Shown one piece after another: positions 3,398 to 11,392 of a stretch of 11,502 nt of DNA. The first letter of the stretch is position 1. Each line of letters starts with the position of its first letter. The position numbers and the translations under genes are program-made. The notes under the pieces were generated by a model. The model saw nothing but the letters and a program-made list of their open reading frames with translations, made no database searches and was not told the DNA's origin. Source of the stretch: a virus; the IMG/VR virus record IMGVR_UViG_3300006226_000583, one strand, 5' to 3'.

Positions 3398-3417
3398 AGG
3401 GTGTCGGGTGACACCCT
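3398..3417. repeat. Palindromic hairpin repeat (8-bp stem AGGGTGTC/GACACCCT, loop GGGT).
   Basis: Perfect inverted repeat read directly. It is the same element as the copy at 6526-6545 in the opposite orientation. Confidence 0.7.
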
Positions 3418-3419
3418 AG

Positions 3420-3458
3420 CCTTCCTTGCCCTTTTACAGGGGCTTGTGGCAGTAGCGG
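3420..3458 (+). promoter_or_regulatory. Conserved upstream module, type II (CCTTCCTTGC-CCTTTTAC-AGGGGCTTGTGGCAGTAGCGG). No ORF lies downstream of it.
   Basis: Shares CCTTCCTTGC and AGGGGCTTGTGGCAGTAG with the modules upstream of the genes at 6566, 10209 and 11175. Confidence 0.45.
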
Positions 3459-3865
3459 AACTTTGATTTCCCACCAGTAACTGGGTGTGTTTTGTAGAAG
3501 GAGTGCGCACTCCGACGGAACTCTACCCTGTTAGGTAAACCAGTCTGCTGTAGATGTGGGATTGATATGGCAGCGTTAGATATGGACGTAGTATTTTGAA
3601 AGTCGCAGAAATCATATCAGACTTGACTGCCGTGAGAGTGCGGCACTTTATATCGAATAGTAGCATTGTGGAATGCGACAAGAATTATTGGATGAGCAGC
3701 ACCGTTTTAGCGACGGCACGGAAGGAAAGTACCAGATCACACTACCGTAGAAAGTACCGCTAAATACTACTACAACAGTCCCTGTAGGAAGGACAAGAGG
3801 AATTAACCTCGTGATGAACTCTGGCTCGAAGGTCTAATTAACTGGAAACAATAAGGAAGGTAGAT

Positions 3866-3890
3866 GTGGGTTCGACTCCCACCTATTTGT
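3866..3890 (+). ncRNA. tRNA/tmRNA-like T-arm (GTGGG-TTCGACT-CCCAC) followed by a 7-nt acceptor-like strand CTATTTG.
   Basis: GTGGGTTCGACTCCCAC is a canonical T-stem/loop. As I recall it, this is identical to the T-arm at the 3' end of Bacillus subtilis tmRNA. I could not build a full cloverleaf by hand. Confidence 0.35.
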
Positions 3891-3977
3891 TTGGCACCAG
3901 ATGGCTGTATAGAAGCAGATAGCAGGTTATTCGTAATCCTCGCTATGTACGAGCAATCGTAATAGAGTGAATAATTC

Positions 3978-4005
3978 GTGGGTTCAACTCCCACTTGGAG
4001 TGCCA
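3978..4005 (+). ncRNA. tRNA/tmRNA-like 3' module: T-arm GTGGG-TTCAACT-CCCAC, acceptor strand TTGGAGT, discriminator G, encoded CCA.
   Basis: The T-loop TTCAACT matches the E. coli tmRNA T-loop as I recall it. CCA follows immediately. A complementary ACTCCGA lies at 3510-3516. No canonical D/anticodon arms are found within 90 nt upstream. Confidence 0.4.
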
Positions 4006-4045
4006 TTTTTGACATATTGTATCAACGAGGCGAGATGGATGGGGA

Positions 4046-4093
4046 TTCTCACTTTTGTGGAGCGGTGTATTTGATATAATTGCTTGTTTTCTA
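4046..4093 (+). promoter_or_regulatory. Sigma70-like promoter candidates for the 4131 gene. One is TTGATA(4067-4072)-N15-TATAAA(4088-4093). The alternative is TTGTGG(4046-4051)-N19-TATAAT(4071-4076).
   Basis: Hexamers read directly and located 35-60 nt upstream of the ATG at 4131. The first candidate overlaps copy 2 of the 16-bp direct repeat TTGTTTTCTATAAACA. Confidence 0.4.
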
Positions 4094-4130
4094 TAAACAC
4101 GTAGAGTGAAACTTTACAAATAATCATATT

Positions 4131-4430
4131 ATGGAAAAGTCTGTTGTTGTCAAAATGATGTTCGGCATTGGGCTTTTGGCATTTATCGTTATGCTACTCA
4201 TGATGCTTGTGCCTGTCACGTCACTGGGTCAGTATCGAGTTCCACAACCACTGCCTCCACAAAATGAAATAGTTGACCAATGGCGAGAAATTCCGAGACG
4301 CTTTCCAGAAACAATCAGTAATGCAGAAGGTTTGTACTTTATTACATGTGAGTTGCGTGGTATCCGTCTGCAACTTGACCGTTTGAACCATAACCTTGAG
4401 AAACTGATTGAAAAGCAGGATGAACGTTGA
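4131..4430 (+). CDS. Small membrane-anchored protein, 99 aa, with an N-terminal transmembrane helix FGIGLLAFIVMLLMMLVPV.
   Basis: ORF with a hydrophobic N-terminal segment and a charged C-terminal half. Confidence 0.6.
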   Translation: MEKSVVVKMMFGIGLLAFIVMLLMMLVPVTSLGQYRVPQPLPPQNEIVDQWREIPRRFPETISNAEGLYFITCELRGIRLQLDRLNHNLEKLIEKQDER

Positions 4431-4446
4431 AACCTAAATTGAAATT

Positions 4447-9528: not shown

Positions 9529-10134
9529 ATGAAAATCACAATCACAGCACAGAACGTAGGGCGCACCGACGGTATCGCACTCAAAATTATCAATCGCCTT
9601 TGCGGAGATGTAAACGGGACGCTCAAGGCGAATACAGGCGACCAGGTAGAAATCGCCACTAAAGCGAGAGCCCCTAAAGTTCTCCCGGTGCTTGCCAGAG
9701 AAATAGCAAGATTGCTCGAAGAGGGCAACGGTATCACGGTAAGCATCGAGACTGGTGGCAAGCACACCACTATCGTAAAAATCACGGATGAGCAGGCAGT
9801 GGCGTTGAAAGTAGCCAGTGATGCACGAAACGAGGCAGACGACGCTTTTTACAGCGCATCGGATGTTGTTAGGGGGTTTGAGTCTCAAGTGATAATTGGC
9901 GGATGCCCTGTGCCTAGAATTACTGAAGTCCTTCAAAAAACGGGTGGGGCGCAAGTGGCAGCCGAGTTCAACGGACACGTTGAAGCAATCCATTCTCTGA
10001 TTGCAAAGTACAACGCACAGGCGGTCGCTGAATTGGCGGAGGCGAAAGCAGAGCGGGATAGACTGCGAAGCGCATACTACTCGCTACGTGGCGGGATTTA
10101 TCAGGAGATCGCTGTTGAGCAGATGGAGTTATAA
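9529..10134 (+). CDS. Hypothetical protein, 201 aa.
   Basis: Strong SD CAGGAG with a 7-nt spacer and a conserved 5'UTR. The antisense 201-aa ORF at 9388-9993 is rejected. Confidence 0.65.
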   Translation: MKITITAQNVGRTDGIALKIINRLCGDVNGTLKANTGDQVEIATKARAPKVLPVLAREIARLLEEGNGITVSIETGGKHTTIVKITDEQAVALKVASDARNEADDAFYSASDVVRGFESQVIIGGCPVPRITEVLQKTGGAQVAAEFNGHVEAIHSLIAKYNAQAVAELAEAKAERDRLRSAYYSLRGGIYQEIAVEQMEL

Positions 10135-10147
10135 GGTTTATAATTGT

Positions 10148-10208
10148 CATTGCCCCCTAACAGGGGCTTGTGGCAGTAGTGAGTCGTTTACTCAAAGGAG
10201 AATTAAGT
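10148..10208 (+). promoter_or_regulatory. Conserved upstream module, type II (CATTGCCCCCTAACAGGGGCTTGTGGCAGTAGTGAGT...AAAGGAG).
   Basis: AGGGGCTTGTGGCAGTAGTGAGT is shared with the modules at 3438 and 11112. It contains a small hairpin CCCCT-AAC-AGGGG. Confidence 0.45.
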
Positions 10209-10412
10209 ATGACCAGTATTAATAAAGTGGTGTTGTGGCAGTATCGGGACAGAGATGTTTTACCGCAGGGAACTGTATATTATGGACACCTGTTGTACGA
10301 GTACAAATGGCGAACCGGTAAGACGCTGGACGAATGCCGTGCCGATGTACGACGGTGGACGTTCAACGACTGGTACAAAAATGGCTATATTACCGAACCT
10401 GAAAAAGACTAG
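10209..10412 (+). CDS. Small hypothetical protein, 67 aa, a paralogue of the 11175-11372 gene. The start is at the internal ATG with SD AAAGGAG. The ORF track start at 10170 lacks an RBS.
   Basis: Shared motifs with the paralogue: LLYEYKWRTGKTLDE/MLYDYKRWSKKTLDE, RRWTFNDWYK/RGWTCIDWYK, and C-terminal EPEKD followed by a stop embedded in the palindromic repeat. Confidence 0.6.
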   Translation: MTSINKVVLWQYRDRDVLPQGTVYYGHLLYEYKWRTGKTLDECRADVRRWTFNDWYKNGYITEPEKD

Positions 10413-10432
10413 GGGGTCGGGTGACACCCTAG
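10409..10432. repeat. Palindromic hairpin repeat (CTAGGGGGTC-GGGT-GACACCCTAG). The TAG stop of the upstream gene forms part of the stem.
   Basis: 10-bp stem with one mismatch. Stop codon at 10410-10412. Confidence 0.65.
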
Positions 10433-10435
10433 TCC

Positions 10436-10520
10436 CACCTTCGTTGCTTTTTTGCGAGGGTTTTGGACGGTAGTGGGTGACACAAGGTTACCTAAACACT
10501 CTAACACAAAGGAGATTCAC
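10436..10520 (+). promoter_or_regulatory. Conserved promoter/5'UTR module, type I (a duplicate of 9439-9528).
   Basis: CACCTTCGTTGCTTTTTTGCGAGGGTTTTGGACGGTAGTGGGTGACACAAGGTTACCTAAACACTCTAACACAAAGGAGATTCAC. Confidence 0.5.
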
Positions 10521-11081
10521 ATGGGCTGGACATCTTATCATGCAACGAAGTACAAAAAGAATGGGACGGTCGACCGAAAAGCCGAATGTGACAAGTACGG
10601 CTGGGGCGACGAGGTTGAAGTACTCAAGTCTGCAATGGTAGGCACAACCTACTACGCAGCGGTACTGGACAAAAAAACGGAGCAGGTTTTCGCTGCCGTA
10701 TTCCTGACAAAGACATGCAGAGACTTCTATAACTTCGGCTACAAGGACATGGACGAAACAGCGGGTCCTGGTGAAGCCAAGTGTCCCGTAAGCATCCTCG
10801 CACTGCTCACGGAAACGGACAGTGAGTATGCCCGCAACTGGCGAGAACGCTGTCGGCAGTATCATGCCGACAAAAAATCACCCATGTCATTCGCAAACCT
10901 TCCGCCAGGGACACGGGTTATATGGACAGCATGTGAAGGTTTTACCAACCTTCAAAAAGGGCAGAGAGTTGAACTGGTTAAGAGGTTGTACGGCAAACGA
11001 GCGACATGGGTGGACTCGACCAGTACGTTTCGCTTGCATCCAAAGTATGTTAAACTCGATGCTATTGAAATTATCGGCTAG
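10521..11081 (+). CDS. Hypothetical protein, 186 aa. The start is at the ATG with SD AAAGGAG. The ORF track start at 10452 lies inside the 5'UTR module.
   Basis: In-frame ATG 7 nt after the SD. The conserved UTR module argues against the upstream start. Confidence 0.65.
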   Translation: MGWTSYHATKYKKNGTVDRKAECDKYGWGDEVEVLKSAMVGTTYYAAVLDKKTEQVFAAVFLTKTCRDFYNFGYKDMDETAGPGEAKCPVSILALLTETDSEYARNWRERCRQYHADKKSPMSFANLPPGTRVIWTACEGFTNLQKGQRVELVKRLYGKRATWVDSTSTFRLHPKYVKLDAIEIIG

Positions 11082-11092
11082 AGGCATCGCTA

Positions 11093-11174
11093 CCCTCCCT
11101 TGCATAAATCGCAGGGGTTTTGGCAGTAGTGAGTGGCACAATGCTACTCTACATTTTGAACAGGAGAAATTCAC
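11093..11174 (+). promoter_or_regulatory. Conserved upstream module, type II (CCCTCCCTTGCATAAATCGCAGGGGTTTTGGCAGTAGTGAGTGGCACA...CAGGAG).
   Basis: Shares CCTTGC, AGGGG and TTGGCAGTAGTGAGT with the modules at 3420 and 10148. Confidence 0.45.
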
Positions 11175-11372
11175 ATGAAAATTCCAGAAACGTTGTTGCT
11201 GTATAAAGACGTGGATGTATATCCACCGGGATTGCTTTATACAAATATGCTGTACGACTATAAACGCTGGTCAAAGAAAACGTTGGACGAAAGTCGAGTC
11301 GCTGTGCGGGGCTGGACGTGCATTGATTGGTACAAATGGTATCAAGACAACGTCGAACCTGAAAAAGACTAG
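11175..11372 (+). CDS. Small hypothetical protein, 65 aa, a paralogue of the 10209-10412 gene.
   Basis: SD CAGGAG. Its C-terminus is WYKWYQDNVEPEKD, and its stop TAG lies in a degenerate palindromic repeat. Confidence 0.6.
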   Translation: MKIPETLLLYKDVDVYPPGLLYTNMLYDYKRWSKKTLDESRVAVRGWTCIDWYKWYQDNVEPEKD

Positions 11373-11392
11373 GGTGTCGGGGGACCTCGTTG
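11369..11392. repeat. Degenerate copy of the palindromic hairpin repeat (CTAGGGTGTC-GGGG-GACCTCGT).
   Basis: The left arm is intact and the right arm has diverged. Confidence 0.4.

Follow-up and report, generated by a model that had tools for sequence, protein, structure and literature searches.

Palindromic repeats in the window

The IMG/VR virus record IMGVR_UViG_3300006226_000583 is a stretch of 11,502 nucleotides, which as a whole is called the window here, and its credible genes are all on the + strand. The subject of this study is a short palindrome that recurs behind stop codons in the window. A previous reading made from the letters alone (the sequence-only reading) had regarded it as a family of hairpin repeats lying at gene ends in both orientations. 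I searched the window for CTAGGGTGTC-N4-GACACCCTAG with up to three mismatches. Four sites were found, while 200 dinucleotide-preserving shuffles contained none, and thus the family is real and occurs in both orientations. The intact copies read (C)TA-GGGTGTC-N4-GACACCC-TA(G) and start at 3396, 6524, 9358, and 10409:

3396..3419, copy A: AGA-GGGTGTC-GGGT-GACACCC-TAG; 77 nt past the stop at 3321; a CCTTCCTTGC module directly next to it
6524..6547, copy B: GTA-GGGTGTC-ACCC-GACACCC-TCG, with an inverted loop; 35 nt past the stop at 6491; ATG 6566 lies 21 nt on
9358-9381 (extended form 9350..9389), copy C: loop CCCC, flanked by an A-run and a T-run; 20 nt past a stop
10409-10432 (extended form 10407..10434), copy D: GACTA-GGGGGTC-GGGT-GACACCC-TAGTC, with one G·A mismatch; stop distance -1 nt

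The distances of 77, 35, and 20 nt agree with the sequence-only reading, as does the presence of a stop codon inside the element: the gene 10170/10209-10412 ends with TAG 10410-10412, which is within the stem of copy D. The module that follows the palindrome in copy A precedes it in copy B. The stems are 8-16 bp in length, and regions of 63-86 nt over the four intact copies fold at -28 to -32 kcal/mol. Copy C is the full bidirectional-terminator-like form of the element, with a stem of 16-17 bp (AAAAAATGCTAGGGTGTC/GACACCCTAGCATTTT; -28.9 kcal/mol, z = -10) and TTTT on one side. It is also the one copy of the four with a T-run directly 3′, as had been pointed out for 9357/9358; the T-run comes 14-18 nt later in the others. 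The ORF (open reading frame) that would end in the element at TGA 128 has a negative coding score.

Distribution of the repeat in related contigs

The exact 20-mer AGGGTGTCGGGTGACACCCT is present in 25 stretches of Joint Genome Institute (JGI) metagenomes, with up to five copies each. Twenty-three of the stretches come from two related samples, almost all from Ga0099364. Two contigs of sample Ga0247815 (L024 and L028) are compositionally unrelated and were discarded as chance matches. A census was made of the window and 21 related metagenome contigs (172 kb), allowing one mismatch in the 14 stem bases. It gave 58 copies, or about one per 3 kb. The majority are perfect, and 52 have GGGT or ACCC as the loop.

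The related contigs have a G+C content of 43-50 % and a tetranucleotide correlation with the window of 0.64-0.90. They encode a portal protein, DNA polymerase A, a 5′-3′ exonuclease, an NAD-ligase, SbcC-like and SbcD-like nucleases, methyltransferases, HNH endonucleases, and many small ORFs. The portal, SbcCD-like, exonuclease, and polymerase genes bear out the phage-like setting assumed in the sequence-only reading. A few contigs look closer to a chromosome or an island and encode Type ISP restriction enzymes, a kinase, and a planctomycete-type ECF (extracytoplasmic function) sigma factor; such planctomycete-type domains may give a mere hint of the host.

The 20-mer is absent from the 185,579 species genomes of GTDB; therefore, the repeat is not a repetitive extragenic palindromic (REP) sequence of any sequenced host. 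A megablast search of the window against 50,697 phage records gave no match. In IMG/VR, a scan with TAGGGTGTC-N4-GACACCCTA found just two unrelated single terminators, a scan with the 16-base core found 44 contigs with one copy apiece and no dispersed family, and a search for loci related via the vault-like protein of the window found none. The closest homologues of this protein (55-58 %) are on contigs L005-L007, and a related palindrome is present in L006 only. Some jumbo-phage contigs of IMG/VR, about 200-230 kb in length (e.g. IMGVR_UViG_3300008091_000010; L119, L142, and L152), have two or three copies each of AGGGTATC-N4-GATACCCT, far above chance.

Placement and strand symmetry

Fifty-one of the 58 copies are intergenic, as against 20 % expected (p = 1.5e-28). 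Between co-directional genes, the median distance is 34.5 nt from the stop codon and 75 nt to the next start codon; of 36 copies, 14 are at most 10 nt away from the upstream stop and one is as close to a start. The copies thus concentrate at gene ends, in agreement with the sequence-only reading. In many of these cases the element itself supplies the stop codon. Its left-hand TAG ends six genes of the census as well as the window gene 11175-11372, whose TAG 11370-11372 had rightly been ascribed to the element, and one convergent gene ends in a TGA made of the loop and an arm. The full element of 22-24 nt has a TAG in two of the three frames, and the single open frame reads R/G-V-S-x-D-T-L/P. 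The built-in stops are found, and all copies inside genes are in one frame, because the element is open in this frame only.

Are these copies transcription terminators? The sequence-only reading had mainly considered terminators or RNA-processing sites. In such a reading, the elements would be rho-independent terminators or hairpins that stabilize or process RNA 3′ ends, and they might have spread by the duplication of terminator-promoter cassettes, as in T4-type phages. The position directly after stop codons would suit such a role. The GC-rich stem-loop of an intrinsic terminator is present, and the master consensus AAAAGGCTAGGGTGTC-N4-GACACCCTAGCCTTTT would make an ideal bidirectional terminator. 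Copy C (9350-9389) and a copy in L006 (3681, with TTTT, before a tRNA gene) look classical, a copy in L017 (4848) lies exactly between convergent genes and holds both of their stops, and promoters follow several copies. However, an immediate 3′ T-run, corresponding to the U-tract of a terminator, is kept in about a quarter of the 58 copies (25-30 %), in agreement with the earlier remark that most copies are not classical terminators. The strand asymmetry expected of terminators is absent: at least seven T residues in 14 nt are found on the sense side in 6 of 36 copies and on the antisense side in 8 of 36, with a mean T content of 4.9 and 4.6, respectively. The non-Watson-Crick stem positions on the sense strand comprise 17 G·U and 30 A·C pairs, so there is no excess of G·U. 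Both loop orientations relative to transcription occur (13:23, p = 0.13). Intrinsic terminators should be missing from divergent junctions and coding regions, but the repeat occupies 4 of 13 divergent junctions (3 of 12 convergent and 34 of 165 co-directional ones), and perfect in-frame copies lie within SbcC-like and SbcD-like genes, where they evolve in concert with the rest. Moreover, independent terminators conserve their structure rather than an identical sequence and loop, and both copies of one lineage (L177) retain an A·A mismatch. For these reasons, I regard a terminator or RNA-processing function as very unlikely to be the primary one; the earlier observation was confirmed in part and its interpretation only partly supported.

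Apart from the proximity to stop codons, no strand asymmetry was found, which points to an entity at the DNA level. The consensus read outward from the center, AAAAGGCTA-GGGTGTC-N4-GACACCC-TAGCCTTTT, is a perfect palindrome ending in an A-tract and a T-tract.

Copies inside genes and lineage-specific versions

An SbcC-like ATPase gene (L018:5112-6320) has a perfect in-frame copy which reads G-V-S-P-D-T-L, and an SbcD-like phosphoesterase gene (L025:668-1945) has a perfect copy in the same frame. At this site of the SbcC-like protein, G-V-S-x-D-T-P is common to all of nine homologues (49-100 % identity). In the alignment, distant SbcC homologues have a gap of seven residues at the segment encoded by the palindrome. 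Thus, the segment is an ancient in-frame insertion. In the SbcD-like genes (L025 668-1945, L173 11052-12338, L174 6692-7843, and L177 9014-10285), the palindrome lies exactly at the junction of a poorly conserved K/P-rich N-terminal extension and the conserved phosphoesterase domain, and the GTG within the palindrome could be the true start codon.

The contigs of four SbcC-like homologues were fetched and compared. It was revealed that every lineage has its own version, or dialect, of the palindrome, common to its intergenic and in-gene copies:

Window lineage: GGGTGTC-GGGT/ACCC-GACACCC
L173: GGGTGTC-AATT-GACACCC
L174/L175: GGGTGTC-TGCG/CGCA/TGCC/GGCA-GACACCC
L176 and L006: GGGTATC-TGCA/TGCG-GATACCC, where the stem has changed in a compensatory way
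L177/L178: GGGTGAC-TGCG/TGGG-GACACCC, where both copies share a change that is not compensated

The residue of the SbcC-like protein encoded by the loop varies with the dialect (P, I, A, A). At the same time, the positions of the repeat are shared by related phages with 52-85 % protein identity. It is found within SbcC and within SbcD, as well as upstream of the portal gene (71 % identity) and directly after a gene for a protein of 389/390 residues (53 % identity), in lineages whose proteins are only 52-71 % identical. Over 22 copies from five lineages, the dyad symmetry is kept in 93.9 % of the cells, and three pairs have two-sided changes; the covariation score is 0.274 as against 0.132 in shuffles (0/500). 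The loops are identical within a genome and different between genomes, the positions are conserved, and the copies in genes follow the dialect. Therefore, the copies must have been copied from one another, i.e. they have undergone concerted evolution. Neither the drift of independent terminators nor parallel point mutations at more than 60 binding sites would give these features.

The latter possibility deserves attention, as the palindrome might be an operator- or parS-type site, a dyad of 18-22 bp bound by a dimeric phage protein such as a global regulator, a partition or nucleoid protein, or a reader of a self-recognition tag. By analogy with KorB operators, ParB/parS, Noc sites, and DNA uptake sequences (DUS), its uniformity would then be due to selection at each site and not to mobility. 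The independence of orientation, the strand symmetry, the symmetric covariation, and the maintenance of in-gene copies at orthologous positions are all in line with this. Two lineages have perfect 18-bp palindromes, GGGTGTCAATTGACACCC and GGGTATCTGCAGATACCC, and 35-39 nt upstream of some canonical sigma-70-type promoters, a copy is present. The iteron-like array with a 36-nt period in L176 also fits. However, within a genome the arms are no more uniform than the central 4 bp, which differ freely between genomes, and the recognition of half-sites predicts the opposite. A change of dialect at more than 60 sites could not be achieved by independent point mutations, and a copying process would be needed anyway. 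Furthermore, the SbcC copy is an insertion, the preference for the first nucleotides after a stop codon is left unexplained, and no candidate protein was identified on the related contigs. On balance, I consider binding sites maintained one by one to be unlikely.

The array in L176 (15243-15367, to the end of the stored locus) consists of at least four tandem units, each with the palindrome GGGTATCTGCGGATACCC and a conserved 18-nt spacer. It looks iteron- or centromere-like.

An insertion sequence and a MITE split the palindrome

The sequence-only reading had listed a good copy at 11369, with a degenerate right arm, and a degenerate copy at 119. Both do derive from the palindrome. They are not decayed hairpins, though, but halves split by an insertion element: a 39-nt junction stands at 98-136 and, inverted, at 11371-11409, with 85 % complementarity. 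At the two ends of the window, an insertion sequence (IS) and a MITE (miniature inverted-repeat transposable element) meet the halves as follows:

1..121, - strand: end of the IS, with the same terminal inverted repeat as the MITE (...ACTTGTGGGGTACAACGAG ends at 121) and an ORF running outward/leftward from about 77; the window begins within this repeated element
122..136: right half of a split copy, GTC-GGGT-GACACCC-T
122-131: candidate target-site duplication at the left end, GTCGGGTGAC
11369..11385: left half of a split copy, CTA-GGGTGTC-GGGG-GAC; the gene 11175-11372 stops at TAG 11370-11372
11376-11385: candidate target-site duplication at the right end, GTCGGGGGAC
11386..11502, + strand: left end of a 284-nt MITE of the IS4/Tn5 family, terminal inverted repeat CTCGTTGTACCCCACATGT; the window ends inside

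I found 12 junctions of the form AGGGTGTC-loop-GAC|CTCGTTGTACCCCACA, and the window reads so outward at both ends. In many other metagenome contigs, too, the 39-nt junction is found at a distance of about 100 nt from an end. Beyond the junction there are four kinds of sequence, two of which overlap by 72 nt with two mismatches, and a non-coding element of 284 nt was reconstructed from them. It has terminal inverted repeats of about 20 nt (CTCGTTGTACCCCACAAGT at both ends) and a rod-like fold; thus, it is a MITE. The 19 bp of CTCGTTGTACCCCACAAGT are alike at 11 of 19 positions with the outside end of Tn5, CTGACTCTTATACACAAGT. A third kind of sequence, at the left end of L025, belongs to the 3′ end of an ORF whose last 34 residues retrieve transposase fragments with the Tn5 dimerization domain (PF02281, E = 1e-12; C-terminal part only). 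A remnant in another context (L036) places the tip of the element at …CAACGAG.

Every junction has GTC-loop-GAC, a candidate 10-bp duplication, which would suit the IS4 family (8-13 bp); duplications of 4, 6, or 8 bp are formally possible by symmetry. Each contig covers one side of an insertion only. The rare loops form a pair: GGGG is at the right end of the window, and CCCC (read outward) is at the left end of L026, which has the other end of the MITE. For one site, both alleles were found, an empty one with an intact palindrome in L012 and an occupied one in L025. The IS also occupies the corresponding place in L173, where the loop is different. The IS and MITE sites are as follows:

Window: 1-121 and 11386-11502
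L025: 1-130 and 6630-6856
L016: 1-130
L173: 15191-15331

These results show that an IS4/Tn5-family IS and its MITE home to the center of the palindrome. The ends of the window are assembly breaks in the repeated IS or MITE. I rejected the idea of the window as a linear element bounded by terminal inverted repeats, since past the 39-nt junction its ends are unrelated to each other and common to many contig ends. A search of GTDB genomes with the 19-mer of the terminal inverted repeat gave three single matches, which is at chance level, and the one that was checked (L033) has no adjacent hairpin half.

Boundaries of homology blocks

Pairwise alignments of the related contigs have 112 internal homology endpoints, of which 23 are no more than 15 nt away from a copy, as against 2.0 at random (at most seven in 1000 trials). 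In L008, 0.3 kb separates two homology blocks whose distance in L031 is 6.6 kb, and each block is bounded by copies. Likewise, about 3 kb in L020, beginning at a copy, is missing from L027. Such boundaries would agree with the terminator cassettes considered above, because the stem-loops of T4-type phages also bound indels between relatives (PMC4122927). They would also agree with a lox/FRT/attC-like core site of a site-specific recombinase, whose arms bind the enzyme, whose spacer is matched among the sites of a genome, and which allows cassettes to be exchanged or inverted. The conserved arms, the spacer that is uniform within and variable between genomes, the two orientations given by an asymmetric spacer, and the integrase genes on related contigs could also be explained in this way. 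However, a site of 18-24 bp with a 4-nt center is short, and a genome with more than 60 active sites, some of them inside the SbcC-like and SbcD-like genes, would end up scrambled or destroyed. Palindromic spacers in two lineages would abolish directionality, no recombinase is consistently linked, and no circular or inverted junctions were observed. I regard a recombinase site as highly improbable.

A proposed repeat under concerted evolution

Taken together, I propose with moderate confidence that the hairpins are a dispersed palindromic DNA repeat of a clade of large phage-like genomes, homogenized at the DNA level and resembling REPs, Rickettsia palindromic elements (RPEs), and DUS. The element would be of the insertion type, or at least would once have been competent for insertion, and may have settled where it is harmless: right behind stop codons, where its own TAG would often become the stop, or inside genes in its single open frame. 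Short-patch gene conversion or re-copying may then keep all copies of a genome identical, loop included, and a putative protein recognizing the dyad probably drives this homogenization toward a lineage dialect. A transcribed copy would fold into a hairpin of 8-16 bp. The minority with A/T-tracts may terminate transcription, possibly in both directions, and such activity is probably a secondary use.

Several points weigh against this proposal. No mobilizing or recognizing protein was identified on the related contigs, which are incomplete, and no REP-associated tyrosine transposase (RAYT) is tied to this palindrome. Gene conversion over a tract of 18-22 nt is deduced rather than observed. The conservation decays gradually outward from the core, without the sharp edge of a transposon. 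The strong preference for stop-adjacent sites and the bidirectional-terminator-like master sequence would also fit a primary terminator role. The excess of homology endpoints is merely about two-fold if any intergenic position is allowed in the null model. Finally, the genes were called as ORFs with a home-made hexamer score, and the contigs are fragmentary and were picked for carrying the motif, so the density and junction statistics are biased. The proposal and its rivals are not fully exclusive.

A more novel reading is that the palindrome would serve as a virus-encoded self tag, a dyad of 18-22 bp read genome-wide by a phage protein. The protein and the tag would co-evolve into dialects, and targeted gene conversion would rewrite every copy, those in the SbcC-like and SbcD-like genes included. 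The tag might, for example, direct the phage's own SbcCD-like or restriction nucleases or protect against them, start recombination-dependent replication, or organize the chromosome. I regard this as quite unlikely; if true, no DUS/REP-like drive system would have been described in a virus before it.

Dispersed palindromic repeats are a classic and poorly understood feature of bacterial chromosomes, and in phages they are mostly mentioned in passing. Here, the same element can be traced through diverged phage lineages at fixed positions, two recombination-nuclease genes included, with its sequence rewritten in each lineage. This offers a natural experiment on how such repeats are homogenized and what recognizes them. 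Moreover, an IS4-family transposon and a MITE home to the repeat center in a viral genome. Such repeats together with the MITE break metagenome assemblies at fixed points, of which the two ends of the window are examples.

Promoter-like modules and other features of the window

The intergenic module next to copies A and B has the form CCTTCCTTGC - small hairpin - TTTTGG(C/AC)RGTAGYGRGTGRCAC. It is found in the window as follows:

3419..3460, + strand: intergenic module, CCTTCCTTGC - small hairpin - TTGTGGCAGTAGCGG
6489-6523, 6848-6866 (partial), 9439-9488, 10147-10183, 10436-10485, and 11092-11141: further copies of the module

The module follows the palindrome in several places, and elsewhere it stands directly after stop codons without a palindrome. 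It was rejected as a sigma-70, sigma-54, ECF, or Bacteroidota-type promoter, as its spacing and boxes do not fit. As for canonical promoters (TTGACT-N16-18-TAnnnT), 45 of 91 matches on the related contigs are intergenic, in 17 % of the sequence. About five of them are within 40 nt of a copy of the palindrome, and an adjoining sigma-70 early promoter is thus not a regular part of the element. The half-site that had been said to recur in the modules is indeed there: GGGTGGCAC (9476), GGGTGACAC (10473), and GAGTGGCAC (11130). The form GGGTGRCAC is limited to three paralogous copies of one module. I also considered GGGTGACAC as a monomer site matched to the lineage and rejected it, since L173, L174, and L176 have no equivalents. 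A putative DNA-binding factor common to palindromes and modules is compatible with these data.

The regions 9439-9528 and 10436-10520 are a duplicated module with its 5′ leader (82 % identity). The genes 10209-10412 and 11175-11372 are small paralogues, both ending …EPEKD-TAG inside the palindrome. They look like tandemly duplicated gene cassettes. Another gene pair (174 and 108 residues) has diverged copies with 37-51 % identity (window 6959-7814, L017 3998-4845, L018 225-1059, and L009 565-1423).

Directly downstream of copy A and its module, about 670 nt (3460-4130) has no credible ORF. It holds two stretches resembling the T-arm and acceptor of a tRNA (3866-3882, GTGGGTTCGACTCCCAC; 3975-4006, GTGGGTTCAACTCCCACTTGGAGTGCCA). 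ARAGORN found no tRNA in the window, and neither the window nor five related contigs gave a match in Rfam. The region could be a degenerate or unusual tRNA-like locus or another non-coding RNA locus.

The vault-like protein mentioned above (502-3012) has 836 residues with a major-vault-protein shoulder and repeat domains (PF11978 and PF17795), and there are more than 5800 metagenome homologues, many on large contigs. Two ENA contigs (L003 and L004) jointly cover the window, and they overlap at 6183-6374 with just 94 % identity, inside the C-5 cytosine methylase gene 5514-6491. Possibly, two strain variants were joined to give the window. This methylase gene also shares its place with a second long ORF (5557-6324), which overlaps it in another frame.

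Comparison with known systems

In T4-type phages, a conserved stem-loop stands beside a promoter-like sequence between small ORFan genes and bounds indels and replacements (PMC2839356, PMC4122927). The palindrome resembles these promoter early stem-loops (PeSLs) in its setting and in bounding indels and replacements among close relatives (L008/L031 and L020/L027). A PeSL is, however, a stem-loop plus a sigma-70 early promoter, while here about five copies have a canonical promoter within 40 nt, the stem-loop is invariant, and copies are also found in genes.

Cluster O mycobacteriophages have a 17-bp dyad, TGTTCGG-N3-CCGAACA, with an invariant 7-bp inverted repeat and a short spacer, which occurs more than 30 times per genome, both in ORFs and between them, without meaningful orientation and with unknown function (PMC4351075). 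These traits are like those of the palindrome. The sequence, the spacer length, and the host are different, and dialects, IS targeting, and the coupling to stop codons and gene ends are not reported there.

Like REPs, the element is a short GC-rich extragenic palindrome with many copies at gene ends, is specific to a species or lineage, and possibly forms hairpins at RNA 3′ ends. A REP is an extragenic palindrome of 20-40 nt in many copies, and here 58 copies were found in 172 kb, 51 of them intergenic. Insertion at a fixed internal point, with a short duplication that is a candidate one here, is a further likeness: several insertion sequences, including the IS4-family ISRm22, insert inside bacterial REPs (PMC1525189), and IS1397, ISKpn1, IS621, ISPpu9/10, and ISRm22 have REPs as targets (PMC1525189, PMC3333891). 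On the other hand, the present element is in phage-like genomes, has no GTAG head, and stands singly and not in pairs such as bacterial interspersed mosaic elements (BIMEs) or REPINs (REP doublets forming hairpins); inverted pairs or clusters are limited to three close pairs (L017 7041/7107, L031 6468/6568, and L010 369/621) and the L176 array. It also differs in having in-frame copies inside genes and in the conservation of its positions at only about 50 % protein identity, and no linked RAYT was found. The sole Y1-like gene in these incomplete genomes (L016:4422-5036; NF047646, 39.7 bits with a cut-off of 80) is flanked by a different palindrome, GACCGATTnAAATCGGTC, and was rejected as a mobilizer of the element for this reason. 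The region L016 4373-5060, with a distant RAYT/IS200-like Y1 transposase gene (HUH motif HVH), seems to interrupt a gene for Type ISP restriction-modification; in L013, this gene is intact.

The RPEs of Rickettsia are palindromic repeats in non-coding DNA and, in frame, in coding genes, where they add a short peptide to conserved proteins (PMC1166351), just as the phage element does. While RPEs are 100-150 bp in length and decay after insertion, the phage element is 18-22 bp, stays perfect, and follows the dialect.

The DUS of Neisseriaceae is a non-palindromic 10-12-mer driven by ComP and transformation (PMC3630211), whereas the phage unit is itself a dyad, occurs in a virus, and has a driver that is only putative. 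Nevertheless, the two are alike in being a dense genome-wide motif with lineage dialects, in having permissive frames inside genes that are limited by a stop codon in the motif, and in forming inverted pairs in intergenic terminators. Their upkeep may be alike as well, since DUS are maintained by molecular drive via a recognizing protein and not by a function at each locus.

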